Shown in pieces: positions 22,950-46,528 of a stretch of DNA of 48,943 nucleotides. A program made the translations under genes and the position numbers. Below the pieces are notes generated by a model. It did no database searches and had not been told where the DNA came from. It saw only the letters and a list, made by a program, of their open reading frames with translations. Origin of the DNA: Thermoanaerobaculia bacterium (GTDB taxonomy: Bacteria > Acidobacteriota > Thermoanaerobaculia > Gp7-AA8); the NCBI GenBank assembly GCA_034663965.1, contig JAXDIO010000291.1, positions 1 through 48,943 on the forward strand. Reading direction: 5' to 3'. Position 1 is the stretch's first letter. Each line of letters starts with the position of its first letter.

Positions 22950-23016
22950 GACGCGCAACGAAAGAGCATGAGACATGCCTGCCGCCGCTCGAAGGAGGCG
23001 AATTACAATCCGCGCC

Positions 23017-23979
23017 ATGCCGACCGCCGCACCGCCTGTCCGACCCGTCACGCTCGATGAGATTTACGCCGCACGCGAACGAATTCGCGGCGTCATCACG
23101 CGCACGCCGCTCATCAAGTTCCGGCATGGAACCCCGGCGCCGGAGATCTGGCTCAAGCTCGACAATCTGCAGCCGATCAACGCGTTCAAAATCCGCGGCG
23201 CTGCGAATGCCGTGGCGATGCTCACACCCGAGGAGCGCGCGAAGGGTGTGTGGACCATCAGCGCGGGAAATGCGGGGCAGGGCGTCGCGTTCGCAGCCGG
23301 CGAATACGGGATTCCGTGTACGGTCGTTGCGATCGAAACCGCGCCTGAAACGAAAATCGAGCGCATGCGCAACCTCGGCGCGCGCATTGTCAAAGTGCCG
23401 TTCGACGTGGCGTGGCGCGCGATGGACGAGCGCGCGGTCGAAGGTGTCGAAGGGACGTTCATTCATCCGTTCGACGATCACAATTTCATTGCCGGCAATG
23501 CCTCGCTCGGATTGGAAATCCTCGAAGACCTGCCGTCGGTGCGGACCGTCATCGCCGCGATCGGCGGCGGTGGACTCGTCTCCGGCATCGGCAGCTCCAT
23601 CCGCCAGCTCGCGCCGCACGTGAAGATCCTCGGCGCGGAGCCGGAGACCGCTGCGCCGGGCGCGCGCTCATTCGAGAAAGGGTCGGCGCAAGCGTTCGAA
23701 GAGTTTCAGCCGTCATTCGTCGACGGCGCCGGCGGCAAGAGCGTCTTCCCGCGCATGTGGGAGCGGATGCAGGGCATCGTCGATGGCTCGATCGTAGTGA
23801 CGCTCGACGAAACGAAACGCGCCATGCGCATGGTGGCCGAAAAAGTGCGCGTCATCGCGGAAGGGGCGGGCGCGTTGTCGGTCGCGGCGGCGTTGAGGGG
23901 AAAGGCCGAGGGACCGATTGTCGCAGTGATCTCCGGCGGGAACATCGATTTGAAGAAGTTCGCGGAGTTGGTGACCTAA
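23017..23979 (+). CDS. PLP-dependent threonine/serine dehydratase family enzyme (PALP fold)
   Basis: LKLDNLQPINAFKIRGAAN (PLP lysine), GNAGQGVA and a GGGGL glycine loop. I prefer the ATG at 23017 to 22975. Confidence 0.85.
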   Translation: MPTAAPPVRPVTLDEIYAARERIRGVITRTPLIKFRHGTPAPEIWLKLDNLQPINAFKIRGAANAVAMLTPEERAKGVWTISAGNAGQGVAFAAGEYGIPCTVVAIETAPETKIERMRNLGARIVKVPFDVAWRAMDERAVEGVEGTFIHPFDDHNFIAGNASLGLEILEDLPSVRTVIAAIGGGGLVSGIGSSIRQLAPHVKILGAEPETAAPGARSFEKGSAQAFEEFQPSFVDGAGGKSVFPRMWERMQGIVDGSIVVTLDETKRAMRMVAEKVRVIAEGAGALSVAAALRGKAEGPIVAVISGGNIDLKKFAELVT

Positions 23980-24058
23980 AAGGCCTTTTCACCACAAAGG
24001 CACAAAGGACACAAAGAAATCTTCGTGACCTTTGTGTCGTTGTGGTTCATTCGCCTTT
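23979..24058. repeat. CACAAAG-armed palindrome (second copy)
   Basis: ccacaaag gcacaaag gacacaaag / loop / cctttgtgtcgttgtgg. It spans the convergent gap and overlaps the stop at 24047-24049. Confidence 0.8.
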
Positions 24059-24529
24059 CTTCCCCCGAGCCTTCCGCCGATCTTTCTTGAAATTGTGCCG
24101 CGCCTCGGCTTCCTCGACCGAGTGCGACTCCGTGATTTTCGTATCGCGCTTCGCCATCTCGGCCAATCGCTTGTAGTGGATGCGAAGCACCTTCAGCTCT
24201 TCCTCGGAAAGGTCCTCGATCGAAATCAGCCGGTTGCTCGCGCCTTCCATCGCTGCCACGATCTCGTCGAGCTTGAGCTGCACGGCCAGCGCGTCTTTGT
24301 TCTGCGATCGCTGGATCAGGAAGACCATCAGGAACGTGACGATCGTCGTGCCAGTGTTGATCACCAGCTGCCACGTGTCGGAGTAGTGGAAGAGCGGGCC
24401 GGTGATCCCCCAGACGACGATGATGAGAACCGCGATGACGAAGGCGGACGTCGAGCCGGTCCACGCCGTCGCGGCGCTCGCGAAGCGCGACAGGACGTTG
24501 CGATTGTCGGACTGCCGGCGATCTTCCAT
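24047..24529 (-). CDS. Low-affinity iron permease family protein (Fet4-like, PF04120-type)
   Basis: FASAATAWTGSTSAFVIAVLIIVVWGITGPLFHYSDTWQLVINTGTTIVTFLMVFLIQRSQNKD matches the family hallmark. Confidence 0.8.
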   Translation of the reverse strand: MEDRRQSDNRNVLSRFASAATAWTGSTSAFVIAVLIIVVWGITGPLFHYSDTWQLVINTGTTIVTFLMVFLIQRSQNKDALAVQLKLDEIVAAMEGASNRLISIEDLSEEELKVLRIHYKRLAEMAKRDTKITESHSVEEAEARHNFKKDRRKARGKKGE

Positions 24530-24562
24530 GACGCGCCTCCCGGTTGAGCCTGTTCACGCCGG

Positions 24563-25168
24563 GTGCCAGCGCGTCTAGAATGCCCCGCCGTGGTCCGTCA
24601 CATCGTCCGCGCCGTCCTCCTGCTACTGCTCTCTTCATCCGCATTCGCCGGCGATTTCAACATCTACGTCGGCAACGCGACGAGCGAGACCAACCGCCAC
24701 GGCCAGTCGCGTTTCCGCACGATCAGTTTCGAATTGACCGGCAAACCGCGGCTGCTGCACTACATCGAACGCTATCTCTCCGATGCCCGCGCCGGCGTCG
24801 ACATCGACTACGCCGACGTCCGCCAGCCGCGAAGCTGGTTCGGCTACACCTACGGCGATCCCGACGATTCCGTGCGCGCCGAATGGGCGCATTTCTTCGT
24901 TCGCAACTACTGGCGCACGTCGTCGAACATGCTGCGGCCGTACGTCGATATCGGCACCGGCCCGATGTGGTCGAACCGTCGCATTCCGGCGGCGACGTCA
25001 AAGCTGAATTTCAATTCGCAGCTCGGACTGGGCGTCGTGATTTTCCCGAACGCGCGGATGCCGCTCTCCGTTGGCTACCGCTTCTTCCACATCTCGAACG
25101 GCGGTCTGACCGGACGTAACCCCGGACTGAACGTGAACGGATTCTTCGTCGGAACGCGGCTGCGCTGA
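24563..25168 (+). CDS. Acyloxyacyl hydrolase / lipid A 3-O-deacylase (PagL-like) outer-membrane protein
   Basis: Signal peptide, then the C-terminal motif YRFFHISNGGLTGRNPGLNVNGFFVGTRL. The GTG at 24590 is an alternative start. Confidence 0.65.
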   Translation: MPARLECPAVVRHIVRAVLLLLLSSSAFAGDFNIYVGNATSETNRHGQSRFRTISFELTGKPRLLHYIERYLSDARAGVDIDYADVRQPRSWFGYTYGDPDDSVRAEWAHFFVRNYWRTSSNMLRPYVDIGTGPMWSNRRIPAATSKLNFNSQLGLGVVIFPNARMPLSVGYRFFHISNGGLTGRNPGLNVNGFFVGTRLR

Positions 25169-25207
25169 CGCTGCGGATGCTATCGTCCGCCTTCTTCTCG
25201 CATGCGA

Positions 25208-25305
25208 GGAGGCGAATGGGGTCTGGTGGCTCCCGCGGTCTTCAAAACCGTTGTTTCGGCGCGGAAGCGTCGAAAGGTTGGTTCGATTCCGACGCGCCTC
25301 CGCCA
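25208..25305 (+). tRNA. selC: tRNA-Sec (anticodon UCA), CCA encoded
   Basis: 98 nt. Hand fold gives an acceptor stem of 7 bp plus an A-G pair, a 5-bp T stem with TTCGATT loop, a 6-position D stem and an anticodon loop CTTCAAA. The variable arm is a 9-bp stem (TTTCGGCGC-GGAA-GCGTCGAAA). Confidence 0.85.
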
Positions 25306-25397
25306 GGCCGGCACGGCCGGCGGCGTTGGTTGCCCAAGGCTCGGCTGCCGTCGGTGTGATCGTCCACTGCTGCGACCGGGCTAGACTCTTCGGCTGA

Positions 25398-27080
25398 ATG
25401 GCTCGCGGTTCGTGGTCGATTCGGTGGTGGCTCAGCATCCTCGCTGCGGCGCTGGCGATTCCGCTGTTGAGTCTTCTGGCGTGGCTTTATTTTTCGCAGG
25501 TCCAGCGCGAAGAGCAGGAAGCGCGCGCTACGGCCTTGCGTATCGCGCGCGCCACTGCGGCGCGGTTGCAGGCGATGCACGAAGACGGATTGTCGCTGCT
25601 GCAGCGGATCGCCGCGAGACAGATCGACGCGGGTTCGTGCGCATCCCTGATGCCCGTCGTCGACTTCGACGTGCGCGACGAGAACCTTTTTCTCTTCGAC
25701 GCTGATGGACATTTTCTTTGTGCCGGCGAGTCGGAAGTCTCGCGCGATACCACGCTTGCGGAGAGCTGGATCGGGCACGAGCTGCAGTCGCATCAGCTCC
25801 GGCCGCGAGTCCCGGCGATGGGCATGCTCAATGGCCGCTGGGCTTCGATCCTTTCGCTCCCCGTGAATCGCGCCACGCTCGTCCTGTTGCAGTATCCCGA
25901 CACGTCAAACGACGTGCTTGCTCCGGACGCGACAGTCACGATCATCGATCGCGACGGCACGATCGTTTCTCGCTGGCCGAAGTCCGGCTCGTGGCCGGGC
26001 CGCAAGGCGCGCGGGACGGATCTGCTCAACATTTCCAGGCGGCAACGCGAAGGGATTGCCGAGGCAGTCGGATTGGATGGCGTGTCGCGGCAGTACGGCT
26101 TCACGATGTTGCCGGCGCTGGGGTGGTACATCTATGCCGGCATCCCCACTTCGTCCGTCATGGAAGAAGTGAGGCAGACCTTCATGCGCGGCATTGCCGG
26201 CGGCATCATCATTCTGATCGTGATCATCATCGTCGCTACGATGCTTTCGCGTACGATCGAGCGGCCGGTGGCTGCGCTCTCGCGCGCGGCCGAGGGAGCC
26301 GCGGCCGGCGCGTACTCGCAGGTGGCGGAGGAAGGGCCGCGCGAGATCGCGCAACTCGCGAACAGCTTCAACACCATGCTTCGTCGCCGGCTCGAATCCG
26401 AAAAAAGACTCCTCGAAGACGAACGCGAGTTGAAGGCGCTTTCGGAACGTATGCTGCTGGTTCAGGAGGAGGAGCGCACCCGGATCGCGCGCGAGCTTCA
26501 CGACGACCTCGGGCAGGCGCTGACCGCGCTGAAGATGGATGTCGGCGGACTGCTGGCGATGACGCCGCCGTCCGTATCCGACGAGCCGTTGCGCACGCGC
26601 ATCATGAACACGCTCGACGAGACGGTGACGGCAGTGCAGCGGATTTCCTCCGAGTTGCGGCCGAGCACTCTCGACGACCTTGGACTAGCCGCCGCTATCG
26701 AAGCCGAAGCCTCGCGATTCGAGCAACGCACAGGAATCGAGTGCGAGCTTTCGCTGCCGGATGACCCTTCGCTGCAAGTCGAAGGCGCGGCTGCCACCGC
26801 CATCTATCGCATCGTGCAGGAAGCGCTGACGAATGTTTCGCGCCACGCCAATGCGTCGCGCGTGGAGCTACGGCTCCGCTTGCGTCCCGAAGAATTGCTG
26901 CTGGAGATTCGCGACGATGGCCGCGGCATCACCACCGCACAGCTTGACGATCCCTTTTCTCTCGGCTTGATCGGAATCCGCGAGCGGGCCGGCCTGGCGG
27001 GCGGCACCGTGCGCATCGAAGGCATTGCAGGCCGCGGTACGATCGTTTCCGTGCGCATCCCGCAGGCGGCTTCCGTATGA
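25398..27080 (+). CDS. Sensor histidine kinase, NarX/LiaS class (2 TM, periplasmic sensor domain, HAMP, HisKA_3, HATPase_c)
   Basis: RIARELHDDLGQALTALK (H-box of HisKA_3), IVQEALTNVSRHA (N-box), DDGRGI (G1). Confidence 0.85.
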   Translation: MARGSWSIRWWLSILAAALAIPLLSLLAWLYFSQVQREEQEARATALRIARATAARLQAMHEDGLSLLQRIAARQIDAGSCASLMPVVDFDVRDENLFLFDADGHFLCAGESEVSRDTTLAESWIGHELQSHQLRPRVPAMGMLNGRWASILSLPVNRATLVLLQYPDTSNDVLAPDATVTIIDRDGTIVSRWPKSGSWPGRKARGTDLLNISRRQREGIAEAVGLDGVSRQYGFTMLPALGWYIYAGIPTSSVMEEVRQTFMRGIAGGIIILIVIIIVATMLSRTIERPVAALSRAAEGAAAGAYSQVAEEGPREIAQLANSFNTMLRRRLESEKRLLEDERELKALSERMLLVQEEERTRIARELHDDLGQALTALKMDVGGLLAMTPPSVSDEPLRTRIMNTLDETVTAVQRISSELRPSTLDDLGLAAAIEAEASRFEQRTGIECELSLPDDPSLQVEGAAATAIYRIVQEALTNVSRHANASRVELRLRLRPEELLLEIRDDGRGITTAQLDDPFSLGLIGIRERAGLAGGTVRIEGIAGRGTIVSVRIPQAASV

Positions 27081-27712
27081 TCCGAGTGCTCATTGCCGAC
27101 GATCACGACATCGTCCGCGAAGGTGTGAAGCAGATCGTTTCCGAGACGAGCGACATCGTTGTCGGCGGCGAAGCTCGCACCGGCGCCGAGGCGCTCGACC
27201 GGGCGCGGCAGGGCGGATGGGACGTGGTCATCCTCGATCTCAATCTTCCCGACCGCTCCGGCCTCGACGTTCTTGCGCAGTTGCGCGCGGTGGCTGCCGA
27301 CACTCCGGTACTGATCCTCAGCATGCACGGCGAAGCGTCGTACGCGGCTCGGGCGCTGAAAGCTGGCGCAGCGGGCTACGTGAGCAAGAGCACTGCGCGC
27401 GAGCACCTCGTCACCGCGATCCGCAAACTTGCGAACGGCGAACGGTTTCTGACTCCGGAGCTGGCGGAAAGCCTTGCCTTCGGAATGATGGGCGCCAAAA
27501 CCAGCGGCCATCAGTCGCTGTCGGATCGCGAGTTTCAGGTGCTCTGCCTCATCGCCGCGGGGCGTCCGCCGCGCGAAATCGCCGCAGAATTGAATGTCAG
27601 CGTGAAGACGGTGGCCACGCATCGCGCGCGGCTGCTGCAGAAGATGGGATTGAGAAACAACGCGGAGCTGGTCCGCTACGCGATCGATCATCAGCTCCTG
27701 CCGGCTAGGTAA
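27077..27712 (+). CDS. NarL/FixJ-family response regulator (REC + LuxR-type HTH)
   Basis: MIRVLIADDHDIVREG...VVILDLNLPDRSG, and the C-terminal LSDREFQVLCLIAAGRPPREIAAELNVSVKTVATHRARLLQKMG. ATGA-type overlap with the kinase gene. Confidence 0.9.
   Translation: MIRVLIADDHDIVREGVKQIVSETSDIVVGGEARTGAEALDRARQGGWDVVILDLNLPDRSGLDVLAQLRAVAADTPVLILSMHGEASYAARALKAGAAGYVSKSTAREHLVTAIRKLANGERFLTPELAESLAFGMMGAKTSGHQSLSDREFQVLCLIAAGRPPREIAAELNVSVKTVATHRARLLQKMGLRNNAELVRYAIDHQLLPAR
27674..27712 (+). repeat. Direct repeat copy 1 (39 nt, cgctacgcgatcgatcatcagctcctgccggctaggtaa). This is the last 12 codons plus stop of the response-regulator gene.
   Basis: Identical 39-mer at 33331-33369. Confidence 0.9.
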
Positions 27713-27834
27713 GAGACGTCGTTACGATTATTGGCACTTCCGCAATGCCGCAGCGCCGGGGTTTAGTGTAGGATCTCAATGCGTATTGCCTCCGCCGAAT
27801 CGTGGTGTTCGATCGTTCACAGTTTGGGGTGCTT

Positions 27835-30800
27835 ATGAAAATCGCTCGATACCTGCTCGTGGTCTTTAGTTTTACGTTGTTAGTGGCTACGAACCTGATC
27901 GCACAATCCGACCCCGAACCTCCCTGCACGGCTTCGATGACATTTGAGCTGACCAGCACGGGTGTTCTGATACATTTTGAAGGCACTGTACCGGGGCCGG
28001 AATATGCACCTAACGGTGTGCACCTCGCCATCATCGAAGTGTTTCCGGGTCGATTGCAACGGGTGGTGGGGGGCGGCACCTGCGACTTCCCCGCCTCAAC
28101 CTGTTCTACCACCCTTTTTGTTGACGGCTGCGTAAGCGCGCCCCGGTACGGAGGGGACGTGGCACCTTGCCATACTACGCAGGGAACAACCGTCATCAAT
28201 CCTGTCATAGACCGTCAGCCGACAATCAACAAATTCGACGCCAGAGCTTCGAGTGCAAAGATTGATGTGACATTCCCGCATCAGGGTTTTTCTGGCATTC
28301 TTCCTCGAGTCCGTCTGAATTGGGCGCCGTCGAATGAAATCGCTGCTTCTGGCTTTGGCTCCGGTTCTCCGAGCTTCGACGCGAATGGAAACCGTATTCA
28401 GCCTTACGATCCTTCGTTCCCGGCGCCTCCAGGAACGATTGGTGTCTTCGCGACGGCCTTCTCTTGTGATAGTGGACTGGTAGATTTCGCCTTCGCCCCG
28501 TTGCCGGACAAAGACACTGGTTGCGATGGCTCCGCCGCCGCTAATTGTAACGGATGCGAGAAGGGCTGCGTCGGTGATCCAATCCGCACTAGCAACGGTA
28601 ACGTTCGATACACGGAGACCGATCCCCTGCCTTCGAACCGCGCGTTCAAGCTGGTCCGTATCTACGACAGCAAGTCGCCTTCTGCCGGTGTTTTTGGCAC
28701 GCATTGGACATCGCCGTTTGATGCGCATGCGTACACGATCAATCTTGGCTCAGGCTCGCTGGACGATTCCCACCGCGCTGTTTTCCTGCAGACGGAGCGA
28801 AGCCAGAGTGTCGCCTTTGTGCGGCCAACGTCCTCCCAGCCGTACCGCCAGGTCTGGCCTCGCAACCAGGCAGCGCAAGGGAAGCTCACATTCGATGGAA
28901 CGTCCTACATTTATCAGGCGGACGGCGATGGAATCGTCCGTACGTATAACGCTGCAACAGGCTTGATCACCGGCTATCGTTTCGTTGCCGATGACCAGGG
29001 CGTCGCAATTTCCTGGCAAGGCGCTTTCCCAACCACTGTTACGGACAATCGCGGCAACTGGACGCTGAATATCACCAACGACGGGACGCTGATTACGAGC
29101 GTGGGGGTCAGCGGGCAGGCCTCTCTGTTATGGTCGTATATCCATGCAGCTGGGATGCTGATCAACGTAAGCGACGCTGGCGCCAACCTCTGGCGGACGT
29201 ATGTGTATGACAGCAACGCCTTGCTCGATCAGGTACTGGACGCCCGCGGCGCAACGATCGAAAGCCACCAGTACGATGCCGCGGGCAATGGAATTACATC
29301 GAGCGGTCCAAGTGGCGAAGTAACAAGCGTCGTCTACAACCCATCTGACAGGACGCCGCGGACGCCTGACGAAACGATCACCAGCGTCACGTACGGGAGC
29401 AACTATCGCGCAGACTACTACATGCGTCCGATTGCGGGCCGGCTGCGCGTGGTCACCATCAACGGCCCTTGTACTTCCTGTGACATGAACGATGTGGTCG
29501 ATACCTACGATGACCATGGCAACGTCCTGCGCGAGCAGGACGGGCGTGGTTACATCACGTTGTTCACGTACGATCAGAGTGGAAGCACTCTCGTGACTAC
29601 TTCCGGACCGTGGAATCCCGCATCCTGCGATCCGGCCACCGACTCGTTGCAGTGTCGGTTGACGCCGGACGATCTCACGAATGTTGCACTGACAGCGACG
29701 ACCGCGACGAAGAGTGCCAGCTATGCCTATGTAGACGCGAATTGGCCGTCGCGCGCCACGCACATCGCTTCACCCAGTCTCCTGCAGCCCGGTGGAATCA
29801 GGCAGGTGACCACCACGTACGACGCGCTCTCAGGCGAGGCGCTCGTGAGTACCGTCGCTGGCTACACCGGTCAGGACTTCCATCCCGAGGCACATGCGAC
29901 CACTGTTTCTCTGTATGACGGAATTGAAGGCGCGGTGTTCAGTCCGGGGGGGAGCTTTGATCCGACATGGGAGACCAAGCCGCAGCCGCGGGCGTCCCGG
30001 AAGTCAATCGACGGACCTCGAACGGATGCTTCGGACCTCACGAAATACGTCTACTACCCGGTCGATCCAGCGGTCCCGGCCATCCTTCGTGGACGGCTTG
30101 CCGCTGTGCGAAATGCGGTTGGTCACATCGTACGCATGGAGAACTACGATGTCTTCGGCCATGCCACGAGGGTGGTCGACGCAAACGGTGTGGCAACTGA
30201 AACCACCTATGACGCTCTCGGCCGGCTGCGGACTTCTACGTTGAAAGGGGTCGCGGGCTGCGATACGGCCGCAGACCCGCTCTGCGGCACCGATCTGACC
30301 AGCACGAACACATTCGTTCCGCCGAGCGGCCCGCTCACGACTTCGGTCCGGCCGAGCGGTGTGCTGTCCGTTTATTCGTACGACAATCGAGGCCGGGTCG
30401 CCTCGCTCGCTCGGGGTGCTACGGCAGTCAGCCTCTCGGAGCGAATCGAATACGACTACAACCCCGCGAACGACCTCAAGAGCCAGGAGCGGTATGTTGA
30501 TGTCGCGGCCGGAAATGCGGTTAGACGACGGGAGTCGTACAGTTACGACGCCTCGAACCGTCTCGCGTTGCTCACACACGACGACACGACCACCGTTGGC
30601 TATTCGTATGACGGTTCAGGACACCTCATCACAGTCAAGGACGAACGGCATGTCTCACCGAACACGACGAACAGCTACGATGCCGCGGGGCGCCTTTTGA
30701 AAGTGACCCAAGTTCTCTCGGCCGCAGTCGGTGGAACGATCTCGACCCAGTACGGCTACGACATCAATGACAACCTGACCTCGGTCACGGATCCGAACGG

Positions 30801-32919
30801 CAACATTACTACGTACCTGTACGACGATTTCGGTCGGATGCTCAAGCAGGTCAGTCCTGTCACCGGCACGTCGACGTACGCGTACGATGCAGCTGGCAAC
30901 ATCGCCTCCAGTATCGATGCGAATGGAGCAACAACAGTACGGACCTACGACGCGGCGAATCGCGCGCTGACGGCTGTCTCGACATGCCAGACGTCGGAGA
31001 ATACCGACCCGTCTGAGACCGTGAGCTGGACTTACGACGATTCCATGGCGGGCCGGTTCGGCATCGGCCGTCTTGCGGCGATGACCGACCCCTCCGGTTC
31101 CACGAATTACGCCTATGACCGCAGAGGCTCGCTCCGGAGCGAGGACCGCCTGATCGGCACTTGGTCGTCCTCCACGGCCTATCAGTACGATGCGGACGGG
31201 AATCGCACGAAGCTGGGCGACCTCGAATATGCCTACGACCATGCCGGCCGTCCGCTGGCCGTCTCCCGGCGCACCTGTTCGGGCTGCACTCCGACGCCCT
31301 TGATTTCGTCAGCGTCCTACCTTCCGTTTGGACCGGAAACGGATCTCTTCTTCGGCAATGGCACGCGGCAAACCAAGACGTACGACACGCGCTATCGGAT
31401 CACGGAGAACAGGCTCACTGGACCAGGAGCGCTGACGCTCGCGGATTTCGCCTACGTGACGGACGCCGGCGGCAATATCACCACAATTCAGGATTCGGTC
31501 GACGCCGCGTACAACCGGACGTTCGGTTATGACGACATCAACCGCCTGATCACCGCGAACACCGGTTCATCGCTGTGGAGCATCGGGACCTATTCATACG
31601 ATCGGATGGGGAACATGCTGTCCTCACAGATCGGTGACCGTACGGAGGCGTTCACCTATACGGGCACGACACCGCTCATCGCGGCGCAAACCGAGCAAGG
31701 GACGGCATTCGGTATGACCTACGATGCCTCCGGGAACGAGCTGTTCGCCCATTATGTGGCGCCCTCCGCTCATGGCGGCGATGGCGATGGCGATGGCGAA
31801 AGCGGAGGCGGACCAATCCCGCCAAGCAATGGCATCTACGTCAGTCGCACGTACTCCTGCCGTAACCTCATGGCCGCGGAATTCACGTCCAATCAGTACA
31901 GGTGCAGCCACCCGCCATGCCATCCTGGTTTGCCAGGAAACATCTACTTGTACACGTATGACGGCCGAGGCGTGCGGGTGCGGGTCACGGCGAACGGCGG
32001 CGGCCAGGAAAACGAATACGTGTACACGCCGGAGCTACAGTTGCTGCAGCGCAGGAACGCGATTTCCGCCGCGGTCGACGAATTCGTCTGGTTCAACGGC
32101 CACGCCGTGGCCCAACTCTCCTCCCAGACGTCCACTCCCGTCTTTACGTTCACCGACCACCTCGGAACGCCGGTTGCCCAAACAGACGCCGCAGCGAATC
32201 TAGTCTGGTTCGCCGACTACGAGCCGTATGGCCGTATCTATCAAACGCGCCTGTCAAACGTGGACCAGCCTCTCCGTCTGCCCGGGCAGGATGTAGCCTT
32301 CCCGGGTGAAGTGGACGAAAACTACAACATCTTCAGATGGTACCGGAGCGCGTGGGGTCGGTACACTCAGGCGGATCCGATCCGTTCGATAGAATCACCT
32401 TTCGCTTACGCCGATGATCGTCCGCTTATGCTTATTGATCCGACGGGACTCTCGACTGTAAATTTCGGTCCCGTTCAAAAGCATGCCGTCGGTATTGGCG
32501 ACGCGCACCGCGAATGCGCTTCTGCTGCTTTTGGACTAAAGGGATGTGCACGACTCACGGGCTTTAGGTTCGACTGTAAGTGCCAATGCGCTGGAGGAGC
32601 CTTCACGCGAAGCATATCGGTGACGTCGGCCGCAATCGATGTGTTCGCCGCGACGAACGCGCCGACGGACGAATTTATCCAAAAAGGCCTAGTTCCTGTG
32701 GAGGACATTTTTACAGAAGAGATGAAACATGTTAGGGATTTTCAGGCATTTGCGGCTTCTATTAAGGACAGCCTAGATTATCTCGAAGAGACGCCCTACA
32801 CGAGCTCGAGGCAATGCAAGGCAGGCTGCCGGGCCGCTCAGGATTGGTTTATTGCATTGATTAGGCATCATATCGCCGTAGTTGACGCGTCGCATCCGCC
32901 AGGTTACTATGCACCTTGA
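27835..32919 (+). CDS. RHS/YD-repeat polymorphic toxin with Sec signal peptide, Cys-rich N-terminal domain, RHS shell, DPxGL cleavage motif and a variable C-terminal domain
   Basis: MKIARYLLVVFSFTLLVATNLIAQS signal peptide. Dozens of YD repeats (YxYDxxGNL, YDALGRL etc.), then RWYRSAWGRYTQADP and the core-closing LIDPTGL at 32437-32451. Confidence 0.9.
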   Translation: MKIARYLLVVFSFTLLVATNLIAQSDPEPPCTASMTFELTSTGVLIHFEGTVPGPEYAPNGVHLAIIEVFPGRLQRVVGGGTCDFPASTCSTTLFVDGCVSAPRYGGDVAPCHTTQGTTVINPVIDRQPTINKFDARASSAKIDVTFPHQGFSGILPRVRLNWAPSNEIAASGFGSGSPSFDANGNRIQPYDPSFPAPPGTIGVFATAFSCDSGLVDFAFAPLPDKDTGCDGSAAANCNGCEKGCVGDPIRTSNGNVRYTETDPLPSNRAFKLVRIYDSKSPSAGVFGTHWTSPFDAHAYTINLGSGSLDDSHRAVFLQTERSQSVAFVRPTSSQPYRQVWPRNQAAQGKLTFDGTSYIYQADGDGIVRTYNAATGLITGYRFVADDQGVAISWQGAFPTTVTDNRGNWTLNITNDGTLITSVGVSGQASLLWSYIHAAGMLINVSDAGANLWRTYVYDSNALLDQVLDARGATIESHQYDAAGNGITSSGPSGEVTSVVYNPSDRTPRTPDETITSVTYGSNYRADYYMRPIAGRLRVVTINGPCTSCDMNDVVDTYDDHGNVLREQDGRGYITLFTYDQSGSTLVTTSGPWNPASCDPATDSLQCRLTPDDLTNVALTATTATKSASYAYVDANWPSRATHIASPSLLQPGGIRQVTTTYDALSGEALVSTVAGYTGQDFHPEAHATTVSLYDGIEGAVFSPGGSFDPTWETKPQPRASRKSIDGPRTDASDLTKYVYYPVDPAVPAILRGRLAAVRNAVGHIVRMENYDVFGHATRVVDANGVATETTYDALGRLRTSTLKGVAGCDTAADPLCGTDLTSTNTFVPPSGPLTTSVRPSGVLSVYSYDNRGRVASLARGATAVSLSERIEYDYNPANDLKSQERYVDVAAGNAVRRRESYSYDASNRLALLTHDDTTTVGYSYDGSGHLITVKDERHVSPNTTNSYDAAGRLLKVTQVLSAAVGGTISTQYGYDINDNLTSVTDPNGNITTYLYDDFGRMLKQVSPVTGTSTYAYDAAGNIASSIDANGATTVRTYDAANRALTAVSTCQTSENTDPSETVSWTYDDSMAGRFGIGRLAAMTDPSGSTNYAYDRRGSLRSEDRLIGTWSSSTAYQYDADGNRTKLGDLEYAYDHAGRPLAVSRRTCSGCTPTPLISSASYLPFGPETDLFFGNGTRQTKTYDTRYRITENRLTGPGALTLADFAYVTDAGGNITTIQDSVDAAYNRTFGYDDINRLITANTGSSLWSIGTYSYDRMGNMLSSQIGDRTEAFTYTGTTPLIAAQTEQGTAFGMTYDASGNELFAHYVAPSAHGGDGDGDGESGGGPIPPSNGIYVSRTYSCRNLMAAEFTSNQYRCSHPPCHPGLPGNIYLYTYDGRGVRVRVTANGGGQENEYVYTPELQLLQRRNAISAAVDEFVWFNGHAVAQLSSQTSTPVFTFTDHLGTPVAQTDAAANLVWFADYEPYGRIYQTRLSNVDQPLRLPGQDVAFPGEVDENYNIFRWYRSAWGRYTQADPIRSIESPFAYADDRPLMLIDPTGLSTVNFGPVQKHAVGIGDAHRECASAAFGLKGCARLTGFRFDCKCQCAGGAFTRSISVTSAAIDVFAATNAPTDEFIQKGLVPVEDIFTEEMKHVRDFQAFAASIKDSLDYLEETPYTSSRQCKAGCRAAQDWFIALIRHHIAVVDASHPPGYYAP
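32452..32916 (+). other. RHS C-terminal tip (155 aa), unassigned Cys-rich putative toxin domain
   Basis: Begins directly after DPTGL. It has 7 Cys (ECASA, KGCAR, DCKCQCAGG, QCKAGC). It is visibly more AT-rich than the RHS core. I recognise no motif. Confidence 0.5.
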
Positions 32920-33262
32920 TCCTTTGCGTTCCTATTTCGTTGCCTGCATTCTCTTGTTGGTGGCTGGTTGCCGGCGAGCACAGTCTCCGGTTAGGAGGCC
33001 CGTGAACAGCGAACAGTTGGCCACGATCACCCAAAATATGACAGCAACGGAAGTCAGGACTAGAATTGGGGCACCGTCCTTCGAGTGGCCGGTTCGTGTC
33101 TTTTCAAAGCAGGGGTATCCGTTCGACAAATCTTGCGATCAAAAGCCCCTTGCTACAATGTGGGTTTACTACGATGACAGAGGCAGTTCGGCGTGTATTT
33201 ATTTCGACTCCAGCGCACGTGTGATTTGTGCCGAAAGCAACGTAATTGTAATTGCAAATTAG
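32909..33262 (+). CDS. Small lipoprotein, putative cognate immunity protein (possible BamE/SmpA_OmlA-like fold)
   Basis: Overlaps the RHS stop by 11 nt. Lipobox LLVAGC, MTATEVRTRIGAPS segment, and lower GC like the toxin tip. Confidence 0.55.
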   Translation: MHLDPLRSYFVACILLLVAGCRRAQSPVRRPVNSEQLATITQNMTATEVRTRIGAPSFEWPVRVFSKQGYPFDKSCDQKPLATMWVYYDDRGSSACIYFDSSARVICAESNVIVIAN

Positions 33263-33279
33263 CACCACAACGGCTCGCA

Positions 33280-33369
33280 ATTGAGCACCAGTTGCGGAAA
33301 AACGGGTTGAAAAGACAAGGCGAACTGGCGCGCTACGCGATCGATCATCAGCTCCTGCCGGCTAGGTAA
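33280..33369 (+). pseudogene. Remnant 3' end (about 30 codons) of a NarL-type response-regulator gene
   Basis: Translates as IEHQLRKNGLKRQGELARYAIDHQLLPAR*, versus THRARLLQKMGLRNNAELVRYAIDHQLLPAR* in the intact gene. There is no upstream REC or HTH coding sequence. Confidence 0.7.
33331..33369 (+). repeat. Direct repeat copy 2 (39 nt), identical to 27674-27712
   Basis: Base-by-base comparison. Identity stops exactly after the TAA, and drops to partial similarity upstream of the 39-mer. Confidence 0.9.
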
Positions 33370-33477
33370 TTCACCTACACGGTGTCGGTGAACAAACCCA
33401 CTAAGATCGGCTCATTGCCGATTCACGCCGGCGATGCGCGCGCCCATGATGTGCCATCGGTTCCCTTTCCCCAATTC

Positions 33478-33870
33478 ATGAGCGCCAGCACTCCTTCCTT
33501 TGGACGGCAGAAGATTCTGCTCATCGACGATGATGAACTCATCGCCGATTCCCTGCGCCGGTACCTCTCGGTGCAAGGCTGCGACGTCGATGTCGCCCTC
33601 GAGGAAGGAGCGGCGAAGACGCTCATGGGGCAGCAACATTATGGAGTGGTCGTCGTCGATCCGTTTCTGACCGGCGGCGTTCATCTCGACGACTCCGCAT
33701 TGCTCGATTCCATTTCGCTTTTGCAGCCCGATGCGTCAGTGATCGTCGTGACCGGATACGGTTCGAACGATCTGACGCAAATGGCCAGCGCAGCAAAGAT
33801 CTCGTTGCTTTCCAAACCGCAGTCCGTCGTTGCACTCAGCGAATTCATATTCAAAGGATTGTCGACATGA
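33478..33870 (+). CDS. Stand-alone receiver (CheY-like REC) domain protein
   Basis: KILLIDDDELIADSL...VVVVDPFL...VIVVTGYG...LSKP. The ORF is open from GTG 33382, but ATG 33478 gives the usual spacing before the DD pair. The stop overlaps the next ATG (ATGA). Confidence 0.7.
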   Translation: MSASTPSFGRQKILLIDDDELIADSLRRYLSVQGCDVDVALEEGAAKTLMGQQHYGVVVVDPFLTGGVHLDDSALLDSISLLQPDASVIVVTGYGSNDLTQMASAAKISLLSKPQSVVALSEFIFKGLST

Positions 33871-36800
33871 AACGTTCCCTGGCCGCATTGCTGCTGATTC
33901 TTGCATTCACCACCACGTCTGGCGCCGCCACCACGAGGAAAAAGGCGCGCAAGGCTTCAAAGAAGACGACGACGATCGAGCAGACCGCGCAAGCCGGCGG
34001 AGCTGTCCGAGCGACGAATATCCGTCGCGAAAAGAAGCAAAGCGATTCCGAGGGGACAGTCGTGCCGAAGCCGGGGCCCATTCCTTTTGTGGCGCCGGTC
34101 GAACTGCAGTTGAAACGCGCCAGCAGCCGGCGATTCGATCTGCGGGGACTGCCCCAGACCAAGCCGATCCAACTCGAGCGCGCGGAGCTCGAGGATCCGA
34201 CGCCACACCCGGTCACTGTGCAAGGGACCGGCGCTGTGCCGGAGCCGAGCATTCCTTCCGTGCAGCCGACCGCCGCAGCTCCGGCGCCTGCGCCGATCAA
34301 CGTCTTCGAAGGTCTCGATCGTTTCAACTGGGGCGCCGGCAGCCCTCCCGATACGAACGGCGACGTCGGCCCGAACAACTACATCCAGACCGTCAACACC
34401 TCCATCGGGGTCTTCCGTAAGTCCGACGGCTTCCAACAGGCCGCCTTCACCTTCAACACCTTCATGAGCCAGGGCGCCTTCGGCAATCTGTGCGACACGA
34501 ACAACTTCGGCGATCCGGTCGTCCTCTACGACACGTTCGAGAACCGCTGGATCATCACCGATTTCGCCTTCCTGACTGACGCGAGCGGCAACGTGCTCGC
34601 TCCCGCCTTCCAATGTTTCGCCGCATCCATGACTGGTGATCCGGTTGCTGGTGGGTGGAACTTCTACTCCATCCAGATAACGGACGCCCTCAACGACTAT
34701 GAAAAGTTCGGCATCTGGCCGGACGGTCTCTACATGTCGGCGAACATGTTCACCTTCGGCGCCAACTCGGCGTTCAAGACCGCGCGCGCCTGGGCATTCA
34801 ACAAGGCCCAGATGTATGCCGGCAGCCCGACCGTAAAGGTTGTCACATTTGACATCCCCGGGGGCGACTTCGCGGTCATGCCCAGCAACGCCCGTCTGCA
34901 GACCGGCACGCCGCCTCCCGGGCGTCCGAATCTGTTCATGTCAACCTGGCAATTCACCAACGCTGTCACGATCTATAAGTTCCACGTCGACTGGAACAGC
35001 GTCGCGCTCTCCACCTTCACCGGTCCCGATACACCACTGGCCGCCACGAGCTGGCCGAACGCGAACGTAGCAAATGCCGCGCAGCCCGGTACGTCGCAGC
35101 TGCTGGACGTCCTCCAGATCCGGGCCATGGTGCAGAACCAGTACACGAACTTCGGCGGCACCGAGTCGCTCTGGATTCCTCATACGGTACGTCGAGGGAA
35201 CACGACCGGTCTGGCGGCACCGCGCTTCTATCAGGCGAACGTGACCGGCGGCACAGTGGCCGCGAATCTCGTGCAGGCTGCGACCTTTGATCCAGACGCC
35301 GCCAACGTCATCAACCGCTTCATGCCCAGTCTGGCCCTCGATCGCGCCGGCAACATGGCCATGGGCTACAGCACGTCCAATTCAACGGCGGGGACAGGGT
35401 TTCCGTCGATCAAGTACGCAGGCCGGCTGGCTGCCGACCCCGTCAACACGTTTAGCCAGACCGAACAGGTCATGTTTACCGGGACCGCCTCCCAGTTGAG
35501 CTCCACACGCTGGGGCGACTACAGCGGGATGGCGCTCGACCCCGACGGCTGCACGTTCTGGTACACGAGCGAGTACGCCACCGGGCTTGATACTCCGCCC
35601 GTTCCTCCCGCCACGACCTCGCCCGGATTCAATCAGCGCTGGAAGACGAAGTTCGGCTTGTTCGGACCATTCCCGGGATGTACGCCCGTCGGCGCCGGCG
35701 GCACCGTTTCGGGAACGGTGACTGTCAATCCCGGCGGTGCGCCGATCTCCGGCGCCACCGTCAACCTCGGTGCCGGGCGTTCGACCACTACCGACGGCTC
35801 CGGCAATTACTCCTTTACCGGCATTCCCGCGGGAACCTATCCGTCGATGACGGCAACCAAACCTGGGTTCGTCTCAGGCTCGGCATCGTCGATCGTCGTC
35901 ACGGACGGCGGAACGACCACGCAGAACTTCTCGCTCACCGCCGCGCCCCCCAGCGCCTGTCTGACCGATACGACGCAGGCCGATTTCCAGGCCGGCATTG
36001 CTTCCGCGACCATCGACATCAACACCTCTCCCGGCGACGTCACGTTGTCGAATGCCCCGGCCTCTGACCAGGCGAACACCGCCGGCACGACAACCGGAAC
36101 CGGCTTTGGTACTCCTAACTGGACCGGCCAGACCTTCATCGCCGGGGTCAGCGGTTTACTCGTGAAAGCCGACGGCCAGCTCTTCTGCAACGGTTGCGGC
36201 GCGACGCCCCCGGACCTCACGCTTTCACTCCGCGCGACCGCAGCTGGTTTGCCGACTGGCGCTGATCTCGCCACTGCCACGATCTCCGGTGCGCAGTTCG
36301 CCAGCGGCGCGACCGTCCTCTTCACCGGGACGTTCGGCACGCCGGTCTCGATCACGTCCGGAACGCAATACGCACTCATCCTGCGTCCCGTCTCCGCCCC
36401 CGCGGGCAGCGGCTATTTCTGGATTCGCTCGTCGCCGAGCACGTACGCCAACGGTTCGCGCGTCCTGTCGGCCGACAGCGGCGCTACCTGGTCCGCCGAT
36501 ACCACGCGCGATTTCAACTTCAGAACGTACGTGCAGACCGGTTACGCAGCGTCAGGCAATTTCGTCTCGTCTCCCAAGGATTCCAACCCCGCGGGCGGCA
36601 ACACGCCGATATGGTCGACCTTCTCATGGAATGCGACCGTACCGGCGAACACCACACTGCAGTTCCAGCTCGCCGGTTCGAACAACCCCAACGGACCGTT
36701 CAACTTCGTCGGACCGGACGGCACGGCAGGAACCTTCTTCACCACCTCGCCCGTGCAGCTCTCGCCGCAGTTCTACAACCTCCGATTCCTCGAATACAAA

Positions 36801-39362
36801 GCATTCTTCGCCACCACCAACAGCGCCGTCACGCCGACGCTGAACGACGCGACCGCCTGCTTCAACGATGTCAATTGCAGCAGCACCGTCGCTACCATCA
36901 CCCCGACGCCGGCGACGGTCTGCAGCAACTCGACCGGCAATACCGCTTCGGGTCCCGCCGGTATGACCACCTACGCCTGGGGCATCGCCAACGGCACCAT
37001 CACCTCGGCGACGAATACCCAGTCGATCACCTACACGGCGGGTGCGTCCGGCACGGTCACGCTGAGCCTCACCATCACCGCGCCGAACGGTTGCATCGTC
37101 TCCGGTTCCACGCCCGTAACGATCAGCGGCTTCCCGGCTACGCCGACCATCACGCCCACTCCGGCGTCGGTCTGCGCGAACTCCACCGGCAACACCGCCG
37201 CCGGTCCGGCTGGCGCGACGACCTACGCCTGGTCGATCGTCAACGGCACGATCACCTCGGCCACGAACATCCAGACCATCACCTACACCGCCGGCGCTTC
37301 CGGCACCGTTGATCTGACGCTCACCGTGACCAACGCCGCCGGCTGCGCGACGCCGAACACGGTCAACGTGCCCATCAACGCCAACCCGGCCACGCCAACG
37401 ATCACGCCGACTCCGGCGAGCGTCTGCGCCAACTCCACCGGCAATTCCGCCGCTGGTCCGGCCGGCGCGACCAGCTACGCGTGGTCGATCACCAACGGCA
37501 CGATCACCTCGGCCACGAACATCCAGACCATCACCTACACCGCCGGCGCTTCCGGCACGGTCGGCCTCACGCTCGTCGTGACCAACGCCAGCGGCTGCTC
37601 GGCGACGAACACGTCGAACGTGACCATCAACGCCAACCCGGCCACGCCGACAATCACGCCGACTCCGGCGGCCGTCTGCGCCAGCTCCACCGGCAACTCC
37701 GCAGCTGGTCCGGCCGGCGCGACGAGTTACGCGTGGTCGATCACCAACGGCACGATCACCTCGGCTACGAACATCCAGACCATCACCTACACCGCCGGCG
37801 CTTCCGGCACGGTCGGCCTGACGCTCGTCGTGACGAACGCCTCCGGCTGCTCGGCCACGAACACGTCGAACGTAACCATCAACGCCAACCCGGCCACGCC
37901 GACGATCACGCCCACTCCGGCGGCGGTCTGCGCCAGCTCCACCGGCAACTCCGCGGCGGGTCCGGCGGGCGCGACCAGCTATGCATGGTCGATCACCAAC
38001 GGCACCATCACCTCGGCCACGAACATCCAGACCATCACCTACACCGCCGGCGCTTCCGGCACGGTCGGACTGACGCTCGTAGTCACCAACGCCTCCGGCT
38101 GCTCGGCGACCAACACCGTCAACGTGACAATCAACGCGAAGCCGAACGCCACCATCACCGCTGCGTCGAGCACGCCTTCCGGCTCAACCGGTAACGTCGC
38201 ATCCGTCGCCAACGCCGGCGTCGGAGCGACCTACGCCTGGTCCGTCACCGGCGGCACTCTCACTGGCGGCAACAACACCCCGAGCATCACCTACACCGCG
38301 GGCGCGGCCGGAACGTTGACCATCAACGTCACCGTGACCAATGCAGCAGGTTGCAGCGACGCCAAGTCGGCGAACGTCACCGTTACTGCTCCCCCAGTGA
38401 CGGTTACCTCTGTCTCGCCGGTCGGCGGCACCATCGCCGGCGGTTCGGCAGTCACGATCAACGGCACCGGCTTCAACGCCGGCGCGACCGTTACCTTCGG
38501 CGGATCGGCAGCCACCAACGTGGTGGTCGTCAGCTCGATCAAGATCACAGCGCGGACGCCGGCTCATGCCGCAGGCGCCGTCAACGTGACCGTGACGAAC
38601 ACCGATACATCCAACGGCACGTTGACCAACGGCTATCTCTACAAACCGCAGCAGTTCGATCCGAACAACGACGGCACCATCTCTCCGATGGACATCATCT
38701 ACCTGATCAACTACCTCTACATGGGTGGCCCGCCGCCTGCGGGAGCCGCTGGTCTGTTGTCGGGTGATGCGAACGGCGATGGCGTGGTCAACCCGCTCGA
38801 TATCTTCTATCTCATCAACTATCTCTTCCTCGGCGGACCGCGCCCGAACTCGATCGTCGATCGGCCGGTGACGTCATTGGCAATCGGAACGGACGCGCCG
38901 CAACTCGACGGCTCGATCGCACTCGGCAAACCGGTTCTCCGCGAGGGACGCTACTTCGTACCGGTCATCATGACGGCCAATAAGGGATCGATCGCGCCGC
39001 AGGCGATGTCGCTGCGCGTTCACTTCGACGGCGAAGTGGGCAACGCCACGATCCGCAAAGCGGGAGCCGCGAAGGATCTTGCAGTCGCATTTGAGACCAA
39101 CCGTCTTGCAGGCAACGACCTGTCGTACCTCGTTTCGTACGGCAATCTCTCCCTCGGGACATCAGCTTCAGCCGTCGTCGCCGAGATCGAGATTGAGAGC
39201 AGCAACGCCACGCTCAGTATCGATCCGCAGCTGACGATGCTCAGCAATCAGGCCGGAACCATGACCGCGTCTGTTGCGAACGGCAAACTCCAGGTGACCG
39301 GCGTGAAGATCGGCAACGGGTCAGCGCCGCAGCCCCGCACACCGGACCACAAAGTGAATTAA
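33867..39362 (+). CDS. Giant secreted multidomain surface protein. Domains: signal peptide, Lys-rich linker, ~550-aa unassigned domain, CarboxypepD_reg-like, ~350-aa unassigned region, 6 tandem Ig-like repeats, IPT/TIG, dockerin-like, cohesin-like.
   Basis: 1831-aa ORF. GTVSGTVTV...TTDGSGNYSFTGIPAGTY (Cna-B/CarboxypepD_reg). Six 84-aa repeats with conserved Cys pairs. SVSPVGGTIAGGSAVTINGTGF (IPT). Two DxNxDGxxxxxD Ca-loops followed by YLINYL. Confidence 0.85.
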   Translation: MKRSLAALLLILAFTTTSGAATTRKKARKASKKTTTIEQTAQAGGAVRATNIRREKKQSDSEGTVVPKPGPIPFVAPVELQLKRASSRRFDLRGLPQTKPIQLERAELEDPTPHPVTVQGTGAVPEPSIPSVQPTAAAPAPAPINVFEGLDRFNWGAGSPPDTNGDVGPNNYIQTVNTSIGVFRKSDGFQQAAFTFNTFMSQGAFGNLCDTNNFGDPVVLYDTFENRWIITDFAFLTDASGNVLAPAFQCFAASMTGDPVAGGWNFYSIQITDALNDYEKFGIWPDGLYMSANMFTFGANSAFKTARAWAFNKAQMYAGSPTVKVVTFDIPGGDFAVMPSNARLQTGTPPPGRPNLFMSTWQFTNAVTIYKFHVDWNSVALSTFTGPDTPLAATSWPNANVANAAQPGTSQLLDVLQIRAMVQNQYTNFGGTESLWIPHTVRRGNTTGLAAPRFYQANVTGGTVAANLVQAATFDPDAANVINRFMPSLALDRAGNMAMGYSTSNSTAGTGFPSIKYAGRLAADPVNTFSQTEQVMFTGTASQLSSTRWGDYSGMALDPDGCTFWYTSEYATGLDTPPVPPATTSPGFNQRWKTKFGLFGPFPGCTPVGAGGTVSGTVTVNPGGAPISGATVNLGAGRSTTTDGSGNYSFTGIPAGTYPSMTATKPGFVSGSASSIVVTDGGTTTQNFSLTAAPPSACLTDTTQADFQAGIASATIDINTSPGDVTLSNAPASDQANTAGTTTGTGFGTPNWTGQTFIAGVSGLLVKADGQLFCNGCGATPPDLTLSLRATAAGLPTGADLATATISGAQFASGATVLFTGTFGTPVSITSGTQYALILRPVSAPAGSGYFWIRSSPSTYANGSRVLSADSGATWSADTTRDFNFRTYVQTGYAASGNFVSSPKDSNPAGGNTPIWSTFSWNATVPANTTLQFQLAGSNNPNGPFNFVGPDGTAGTFFTTSPVQLSPQFYNLRFLEYKAFFATTNSAVTPTLNDATACFNDVNCSSTVATITPTPATVCSNSTGNTASGPAGMTTYAWGIANGTITSATNTQSITYTAGASGTVTLSLTITAPNGCIVSGSTPVTISGFPATPTITPTPASVCANSTGNTAAGPAGATTYAWSIVNGTITSATNIQTITYTAGASGTVDLTLTVTNAAGCATPNTVNVPINANPATPTITPTPASVCANSTGNSAAGPAGATSYAWSITNGTITSATNIQTITYTAGASGTVGLTLVVTNASGCSATNTSNVTINANPATPTITPTPAAVCASSTGNSAAGPAGATSYAWSITNGTITSATNIQTITYTAGASGTVGLTLVVTNASGCSATNTSNVTINANPATPTITPTPAAVCASSTGNSAAGPAGATSYAWSITNGTITSATNIQTITYTAGASGTVGLTLVVTNASGCSATNTVNVTINAKPNATITAASSTPSGSTGNVASVANAGVGATYAWSVTGGTLTGGNNTPSITYTAGAAGTLTINVTVTNAAGCSDAKSANVTVTAPPVTVTSVSPVGGTIAGGSAVTINGTGFNAGATVTFGGSAATNVVVVSSIKITARTPAHAAGAVNVTVTNTDTSNGTLTNGYLYKPQQFDPNNDGTISPMDIIYLINYLYMGGPPPAGAAGLLSGDANGDGVVNPLDIFYLINYLFLGGPRPNSIVDRPVTSLAIGTDAPQLDGSIALGKPVLREGRYFVPVIMTANKGSIAPQAMSLRVHFDGEVGNATIRKAGAAKDLAVAFETNRLAGNDLSYLVSYGNLSLGTSASAVVAEIEIESSNATLSIDPQLTMLSNQAGTMTASVANGKLQVTGVKIGNGSAPQPRTPDHKVN
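36885..38396 (+). repeat. Six in-frame tandem 252-bp repeats (84-aa Ig-like/PKD-like units), with unit starts at 36885, 37137, 37389, 37641, 37893 and 38145
   Basis: Period counted directly. Units 3-5 are nearly identical in protein sequence but not in DNA. Confidence 0.9.
38658..38846 (+). other. Dockerin-like module (two EF-hand-type Ca-binding repeats)
   Basis: DPNNDGTISPMDIIYLINYLYMGGPPP ... GDANGDGVVNPLDIFYLINYLFLGGPRP. Confidence 0.7.
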
Positions 39363-42058: not shown

Positions 42059-42181
42059 GCAATCCAAGAGCAGACGACATCGCCGGTGGATAAGCGACAG
42101 GAACGACGTCTGCCGCCGCTCCCCCTTCGCCGGGTCTCGACCAACAAATCAGCCCAAACGACACCTATTCGGATTTTCTAA

Positions 42182-42406: not shown

Positions 42407-42413
42407 GAGGTTC

Positions 42414-42629: not shown

Positions 42630-42685
42630 CGCTTCGAGCGTCGCATTCCTACGTTCGGCCGTCGCACTAAAGCCAACGCCAAGCC

Positions 42686-46463: not shown

Positions 46464-46526
46464 GTTGAATGTTGAATGAACGCCACGGATCACCCCCGCG
46501 CCGTTGAACATTGAAACTCAACATTG
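46464..46526. repeat. Short GTTGAAT heptad palindrome just downstream of the exbD stop
   Basis: gttgaatgttgaatg / spacer / gttgaacattgaaactcaacattg. Confidence 0.7.
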
Positions 46527-46528
46527 CC

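Follow-up and report, generated by a model that had tools for sequence, protein, structure and literature searches.

An RHS gene cassette inserted at the stop codon of a response-regulator gene in an uncultured Thermoanaerobaculia lineage

How does a cassette without a recombinase gene come to lie between two perfect copies of a gene end, in the middle of a conserved two-component operon? The question is raised by a 48,943-nt (48.9 kb) stretch of DNA—hereafter the window, to whose whole length all coordinates refer—from an uncultured soil lineage of Thermoanaerobaculia (Acidobacteriota) that, going by database record names, is represented solely by metagenome assemblies. In this window, genes for an RHS protein and a small lipoprotein follow a NarL/LuxR-type response-regulator gene, whose 3' end recurs downstream of the pair. 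A first-pass annotation took this arrangement as a footprint of site-specific integration, with the repeat as an attachment (att) core and the downstream copy as the displaced remnant of the host gene. Comparison with a set of 173 fetched loci (labelled L001-L173) reveals the cassette to be foreign DNA, inserted at the regulator stop codon and exchanged between strains by homologous recombination, and resolves the repeat into parts of two different ages.

The cassette is an insertion at the regulator stop codon

As previously noted, the last 39 nt of the regulator gene recur perfectly downstream. The window contains exactly two copies of this 39-mer, CGCTACGCGATCGATCATCAGCTCCTGCCGGCTAGGTAA (39/39 identical; Table 1), while a match was found in 0/100 shuffles. 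Identity ends at the stop codon itself, again as first described: past the TAA, the next 40 nt match at just nine positions (9/40). Upstream of the perfect block, an ungapped similarity extends over a further 47 nt (27627-27673 versus 33284-33330; 27/47 matches, chance P ~2e-5 given the purine-rich composition) before dropping to background (10/40). The diverged homology that had been reported on this side is therefore present, but its length is closer to 15-16 codons than to the ~18 initially proposed. Over its whole length the repeat comprises 66/86 identical positions and one perfect 39-nt block; in the protein view, one copy reads IEHQLRKNGLKRQGELA and the other ...RLLQKMGLRNNAELV, each continuing into the shared RYAIDHQLLPAR and the stop. 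Orthologues with 91-99% regulator identity all terminate in ...LLQKMGLRNNAELVRYAIDH.LLP.., the same C-terminus as in the window, identifying the first 39-mer copy as the native gene end. The diverged segment preceding the second copy—the arm—is most similar to regulator genes of its own clade, with 30/47 matches to the orthologue in L004.

The expectation that related genomes would contain an empty site was borne out in four species other than the window's own (L004/L005, L006-L009/L090, L170/L171 and L172/L173), whose regulators are 94-96% identical to that of the window and whose flanks share ~87-88% nucleotide identity with it. All four lack the cassette: the regulator TAA is followed directly by the equivalent of window position 33370 onward, then by a stand-alone receiver-domain gene and a giant PKD/TIG/dockerin gene, and the junction reads TAA followed by TT(C/T)ACCTACACG. 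Because the empty sites join the regulator TAA straight to this sequence, the 5,657 bp between the repeats is an insertion, although its register within the 39-nt repeat is arbitrary. The foreign cassette left the regulator gene intact, and the receiver operon retains its native upstream DNA. It does, as had been suggested, separate the kinase/regulator pair from the receiver and giant surface-protein genes, which are adjacent at the empty sites. Occupied sites were seen only in L001-L003, loci of the window's own species (98-100% nucleotide identity).

Just two open reading frames (ORFs), the RHS gene and its lipoprotein partner, are supported by Pfam and ORF scans between the repeat copies, in agreement with the first-pass annotation; antisense ORFs of the cassette gave no Pfam match. 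The RHS protein matches PF05593 (six stretches), PF20148 (DUF6531) and PF03527 (RHS core). Its N-terminus is signal-like and looks like a Sec signal, and its core carries a DPTGL motif, read in the sequence, followed by a variable, cysteine-rich C-terminal tip of ~155 amino acids (GC 0.52) that had no Pfam match. The lipoprotein gene overlaps the RHS stop by 11 nt, and a homologue of it also follows the RHS gene in L012, which has a homologous tip. On the basis of this position, overlap and co-occurrence, the 117-amino-acid lipoprotein is presumed to be an immunity protein; judging from sequence, the RHS protein would be the corresponding toxin. A lipoprotein search of 5.8 billion proteins returned one other homologue only, with no contig on record and hence no further right junctions.

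Cassette DNA is of lower GC content than its surroundings, as originally observed, with 0.58 for the insert, 0.54 for the leader upstream of the RHS gene and 0.52 for the tip, lipoprotein gene and arm combined, against 0.635 for both flanks. A composition profile across the region had been proposed as a check: GC content does set the cassette apart, but its tetranucleotide deviation (24.2 versus a mean of 16.2, standard deviation 3.8) is not distinctive and counts as weak evidence, the native giant PKD gene deviating equally. Homology among the leaders of the window cassette, the L012 cassette and L102-type cassettes starts within ~10 nt of the left junction, though the insertion points differ. 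A candidate conserved 'AGAC' left terminus was dropped, as two alignments place the leader homology differently.

Two ages within the repeat and the latest transfer between strains

The arm differs from the live regulator gene at 20/47 positions and from the L004 orthologue at 17/47, corresponding to a Jukes-Cantor (JC) distance of ~0.5. As a neutral clock, we used the distance at four-fold degenerate sites (K4) of the kinase and regulator genes, which from the window amounts to 0.08 for L002, 0.33-0.35 for L170/L172, 0.42 for L006, 0.50 for L004 and 0.72 for L010. The per-lineage neutral distance to the empty-site splits is 0.17-0.25 (K4 0.33-0.51). Since the JC distance of the arm exceeds this range, the arm is older than the nearest empty-site split (P = 0.004 for its being no older). 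The core, by comparison, contains no mismatch (0/39), for which P = 2.5e-8 if core and arm were of equal age. The repeat thus has two ages, that of an old arm and that of a recently reset 39-mer. This is at odds with the proposal that the second copy is the host's displaced remnant 3' end, given that the arm is more diverged than neutral sites are relative to the empty-site species. Instead, the right copy consists of an old arm travelling with the cassette and a recently reset block, as opposed to a freshly displaced host end or a uniformly decaying duplicate.

Two of the occupied loci, L002 and L003, are identical over 6,231 nt and represent one strain. Between this strain and the window, the stretch 21535-27448 contains 151 single-nucleotide polymorphisms (SNPs; 2.55%), the last of them at 27448, inside the regulator gene. 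There the near-identical tract begins, reaching at least to 33595, where L002 stops. Included in it are the final 264 nt of the regulator gene, the cassette from end to end, the two 39-mers and, on the right, 226 nt of flanking sequence. At left-flank density, zero SNPs within 27449-27673 has P = 0.003, so the left breakpoint falls within the regulator coding sequence, 225 nt or more upstream of the perfect repeat, rather than at that repeat itself. As SNP density falls from 2.55% to 0.13% after 27448, the latest inter-strain transfer or sweep relied on homologous recombination, the crossover on the left having taken place within the regulator gene body.

Inside the tract, L002 is without 73 nt of the RHS gene (window 29937-30010), which is thereby split into two ORFs, and 29937 is precisely where the L003 contig breaks off. 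Either the L002/L003 strain has a genuine frameshifting deletion here, or the assembly went wrong at an RHS repeat.

The cassette has no recombinase of its own, and its exchange between strains proceeds by homologous recombination. In line with the earlier statement that no integrase or transposase is present, Pfam scans detected neither of these nor a reverse transcriptase among the candidate ORFs examined along the 48.9 kb of the window, antisense ORFs of the cassette included. Genes for a type VI secretion system (T6SS), PAAR or VgrG proteins were likewise not seen in the window. The 39-mer was present at no other locus among the 173 fetched and gave no match in viral contigs; neither did an exact 27-mer search of JGI metagenome contigs (a collection apparently without the source samples) or a megablast of the cassette against plasmids. 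An Rfam scan of 27.0-34.2 kb returned two sub-threshold chance matches only, and promoter/terminator scanning and folding of repeat and leader yielded nothing above shuffles. A diversity-generating retroelement was discarded as a candidate: the window contains no reverse transcriptase, and mismatches are not adenine-specific (in the 38 nt beside the core, only 4 or 6 of 15 mismatches, depending on the copy considered, coincide with an A). As for Xer/dif-type integration, a comparison by eye showed no resemblance of the 39-mer to a dif site.

Competing explanations for the cassette and its repeat

What, then, accounts for a perfect block next to an old arm? The explanation we favour, and hold with moderate confidence, is that of an integrase-less RHS/lipoprotein islet spread by host homologous recombination, whose 39-mer is the mark of the last recombination between the arm and the live regulator 3' end. 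The cassette would carry at its right end an old, 47-nt copy of the regulator 3' end, the perfect 39-nt block being the young part. This last recombination may have been a Campbell-type event, in which a circular or looped cassette copy joined the chromosome by a single crossover, or else the entry of a conversion tract from a cassette-free allelic regulator-receiver fragment; in both cases the work would fall to the general recombination machinery of the host and not to a recombinase encoded by the cassette. The base at position -1 is a G before the right copy and in every empty site, and a C before the left copy; the G of the right copy fits a tract copied from another allele. Each such event would reset that part of the arm still able to pair while the remainder decays, producing the sharp switch from diverged to identical sequence. 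Spread between related genomes would occur via homologous recombination in the conserved flanking operon genes. The predicted empty-site junction on this species' background is ...CCGGCTAGGTAA joined to TTCACCTACACGG, and the predicted circle junction is ...GGCGAACTGGCG followed by the 39-mer and GAGACGTCGTTACG.

Several points weigh against this explanation. It leaves the first creation of a regulator-like arm beside the cassette unexplained, and perfect identity right up to the 3' edge of the repeat is accounted for by a defined crossover site no less readily than by a conversion tract. The age estimate of the arm derives from 47 nt only. The recombinase search covers 49 kb, and a recombinase could be encoded elsewhere in the genome. 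No same-species empty site, circular junction or donor was found—an exact look-up of the receiver protein, with V or M as the first residue, returned nothing on record for same-species empty sites—leaving excision putative and either direction of strain transfer conceivable.

Site-specific integration, as proposed in the first-pass annotation, would make the 39-mer the att core for a tyrosine or serine recombinase whose gene lies elsewhere, with the cassette a cis-mobilisable, satellite-type island and the arm its attP arm. A perfect core beside a diverged arm, identity halting precisely at the stop codon and clean empty sites in relatives all speak in its favour, as does the length of the core, which is typical of islands integrating at gene 3' ends. 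We nonetheless judge this unlikely: cassette and window hold no recombinase, the 39-mer was found at this locus and nowhere else searched, homologous cassettes at other sites have different repeats or none, and the breakpoint of the latest transfer lies well upstream of the core. Possible, if doubtful, is an ancient insertion in place, inherited vertically, in which the duplicated regulator end decayed, its last 39-40 nt were recently gene-converted and precise deletions between the repeats removed the cassette from sister species. The age of the arm is indeed similar to or greater than that of the clade of 91-96% regulator identity; a second clade, of 78-79% regulator identity, has cassettes at the same position, decaying in place with a 62-66-nt repeat; and RHS genes accompany the operon across the class. 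This scenario would, however, require at least two to three independent and perfectly precise losses (L170/L172, L006, L004, and L010) in place of one gain, and the closest RHS relatives (64-68% identity) sit at other positions. Cassette GC is below that of the flanks, and the cassette shows ~20-fold lower inter-strain divergence than the flank, clear evidence that it moves horizontally.

We give next to no credence to two further alternatives, and reject both. The first-pass annotation had itself raised the prospect of the 39-mer being a 3' end common to many paralogous regulator genes, or the product of regulator duplication and decay, and NarL-type regulators are very numerous (6,399 matches at E <= 1e-30). 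Yet no more than the last 86 nt of such a gene are there, the 39-mer has two copies in the window and none at the other loci of the set, the arm is closest to the clade's own orthologue, and the empty sites show a simple insertion. An assembly artefact, that is, a chimeric path via a shared k-mer, might be suspected because the contigs are metagenome assemblies and because, at position 29937 inside the RHS gene, the L003 contig ends and L002 has an indel. The same junctions recur, however, in independent assemblies from different samples, and 39 nt is far shorter than the reads. The left junction is found in both JGI 3300044839 and NCBI GCA_034664195.1; the former also covers the right junction and contains the two 39-mers. 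The same structure is seen in a further, identical JGI contig (sample 3300044720), from which the window itself may derive.

Related cassettes, known systems and the host operon

The kinase-regulator-receiver-giant-protein operon is a hot spot for RHS genes across the class. They lie after the regulator gene in L102, L110, L129 and L098 (with a partial gene in L095, a remnant in L101 and ~1-kb residues in L093/L103), between the kinase and regulator genes in L012/L013, and upstream of the kinase gene in L010 and L099/L100. The closest relatives of the window's RHS protein (64-68% amino acid identity) occupy other operon positions or an unrelated locus, L014. Several of these cassettes are bracketed by repeats of their own (Table 1). 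Of the nine mismatches in the L012 repeat, all fall within the first 135 nt, the last 130 nt being perfect. L129 and L010 have no detectable flanking repeat. According to the first-pass annotation, relatives with an RHS gene at this position and no repeat would speak against integration; L129 is clearly of this kind, while L110 and L098 run off their contigs. Among more distant RHS genes from GTDB representative genomes, flanking repeats were found for 2/34 testable genes versus 1/12 shifted control intervals. The notion that all RHS genes carry flanking duplications was rejected accordingly, the pattern being limited to the close subfamily and this operon.

Individual loci show peculiarities of their own. 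The L012 cassette—an RHS gene and a lipoprotein gene homologous to those of the window—interrupts the regulator gene at codon 26, and its two repeat copies are about equally close to relatives. The L014 bracket also encloses an opposite-strand gene for a 319-amino-acid Y1_Tnp protein (IS200-like/RAYT-type). The 78-79% clade presents a decay series from a full RHS gene (L102) via a partial one (L095) and a 45-amino-acid remnant (L101) to a ~1-kb residue (L103); L093 instead contains a ~220-nt duplication reaching into the receiver gene. Some 60 nt ahead of the start codons of their RHS genes, the L010 and L014 leaders have in common the stretch GTGATGTACGATG...(A/T)TTTT(T/G)AGGAG, in which the bases flanking the Shine-Dalgarno-like AGGAG could, by eye, pair.

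Table 1 Features of the window and repeats bracketing related cassettes.
Feature	Position	Strand	Basis or remark
Histidine kinase	25398..27080	+	Pfam HAMP, HisKA_3, HATPase_c; native flank; syntenic in all related loci
NarL/LuxR-type response regulator, 211 aa, intact	27077..27712	+	Pfam Response_reg and GerE; C-terminus ...LLQKMGLRNNAELVRYAIDHQLLPAR, native for clade
Near-identical tract between two strains	27449..33595		8 differences (0.13%) and one 73-nt indel; Poisson P 4e-55
Left copy of perfect 39-nt repeat	27674..27712	+	Final 12 codons and TAA of regulator gene
Insertion relative to empty sites, 5,657 bp	27713..33369	+	Junction alignment with L004, L006, L170, L172
Cassette leader, 122 nt, GC 0.54	27713..27834	+	Aligned with leaders in L012, L102, L095, L103
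RHS protein, 1,694 aa	27835..32919	+	Pfam; homologues P0121-P0123 at 64-68% identity
Lipoprotein, 117 aa	32909..33262	+	Lipobox LVAGC; weak BamE-like Pfam match, E = 0.0011
Old decayed arm resembling regulator 3' end, 47 nt	33284..33330	+	Cassette right end
Right copy of perfect 39-nt repeat	33331..33369	+	Joined to native intergenic DNA
Stand-alone receiver-domain gene	33382..33870	+	Pfam; directly 3' of regulator gene at empty sites (synteny)
Giant PKD/TIG/dockerin surface protein	33867..39362	+	Pfam; synteny; native operon partner
265-nt repeat, 96.6% identity (also L013/L096)	L012 9556-9820 and 15401-15665		Kinase gene end and first 77 nt of regulator gene
141-nt repeat, 88.7%	L014 5486-5626 and 12571-12711		Ends at stop codon of M48 peptidase gene
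444-nt repeat, 94.8%	L026		Ends at a stop codon
Composite repeat	L018		
62-66-nt repeat	78-79% regulator-identity clade		Last 15-19 nt of regulator and 47 nt intergenic DNA; same position as window

These comparisons lead us to a more tentative suggestion, which we think doubtful: this Thermoanaerobaculia RHS subfamily, lacking a recombinase gene, may insert by an undescribed duplicative route. Its cassettes would have a common leader, would land at or just after gene ends and would each time duplicate 40-450 nt of local upstream sequence, as exemplified by the regulator end in the window, the kinase end and regulator start in L012, the M48 peptidase end in L014 and the 444 nt leading up to a stop codon in L026. 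Such a route could consist in a D-loop-type, homology-anchored illegitimate join or depend on a trans-acting factor. Repeated landing in one kinase-regulator-receiver operon may place the toxin under the control of that system. A duplicative insertion route and a functional link to a single two-component operon would, if true, be of greater interest than the islet explanation preferred above.

How does the cassette relate to known systems? Islands in tRNA genes, like phage 21 and e14 in icd, insert at the 3' end of a gene and restore it. The cassette resembles them in that its repeat stems from the 3' end of the target gene, the target remains intact and relatives offer clean empty sites; it differs from them in that there is no integrase, the far-end copy predates the host lineage split and the latest breakpoint lies outside the repeat. 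Homology-facilitated illegitimate recombination, reportedly described for natural transformation in 2002 by de Vries and Wackernagel and by Prudhomme and co-workers, likewise involves a gain of foreign DNA via one anchor in a conserved gene, and could explain the first duplicated gene end beside the cassette; its usual outcome, however, is a deletion in the recipient and not a duplication.

The closest described analogue is the microcin H47 island of E. coli, a 13-kb toxin/immunity island with imperfect 144/148-bp repeats (76% identity, four identity blocks) and no integrase, which recombines within the identity blocks and excises without RecA, as shown experimentally for both excision and integration (Azpiroz et al. 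2011, PMC3191183; Azpiroz & Lavina 2017, PMC5426353). Both are small chromosomal islands with a toxin gene—putative in our case—and an immunity gene, long imperfect direct repeats containing perfect blocks, and no recombinase, such that host functions are needed. The present cassette differs in its size (5.7 kb), its ~86-nt repeat with a single 39-nt block, the duplication of a protein-coding gene 3' end and its RHS rather than microcin cargo; moreover, it is known from sequence alone, in contrast to the experimental record for H47. RHS/YD polymorphic toxin loci are reported to exchange tips and immunity genes by homologous recombination and to contain orphan modules (Zhang et al. 2012, PMC3482391; Koskiniemi et al. 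2014, PMC3967940). With these, the window locus shares the shell and core, the variable low-GC tip, the adjacent small gene and the recombination-driven exchange of the locus between strains, but its repeat lies in the neighbouring regulator gene instead of the RHS gene, and it has no orphan tip array.

What is new here is the RHS cargo and the host lineage, within an already known class of integrase-less islets bounded by imperfect repeats. Empty sites and strain SNPs together show a contact-toxin cassette, as we presume it to be, entering and spreading without a mobility gene of its own, via recombination in conserved neighbours. The two-age repeat further counsels caution, in that a perfect repeat at a gene 3' end is by itself no proof of site-specific integration. 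The recurrent association of RHS genes with a two-component operon that encodes a giant PKD/dockerin protein suggests a regulatory coupling of sensing and toxin deployment.

The window harbors a second RHS gene on the minus strand (ORF 42894-46211; 1,105 amino acids), with DUF6531 and RHS repeats and without core and tip, whose product matches residues 223-1043 of the first RHS protein at 43% identity. It sits in a 4.47-kb segment (window 42060-46529) for which no flanking direct repeat was found and which is missing from L004, where a Big_2-domain gene and exbD lie 14 nt apart.

As for the native operon, the start of the regulator gene overlaps the stop of the kinase gene. Right after the regulator stop, a motif, (A)CC(C)CTACACG, is kept across clades (window 33370-33395, L004, L006, L115, L170 and L172); the window copy sits in an inverted repeat, TTCACC-N11-GGTGAA, and the motif may be an operator or promoter element for the receiver and giant-protein genes. 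Finally, L010 and the window have regulators that are 91% identical and kinases that are just 62% identical, the L010 kinase possessing a dCache_1 sensor domain that the window kinase lacks. The sensor part of the two-component system appears to undergo swapping between lineages.

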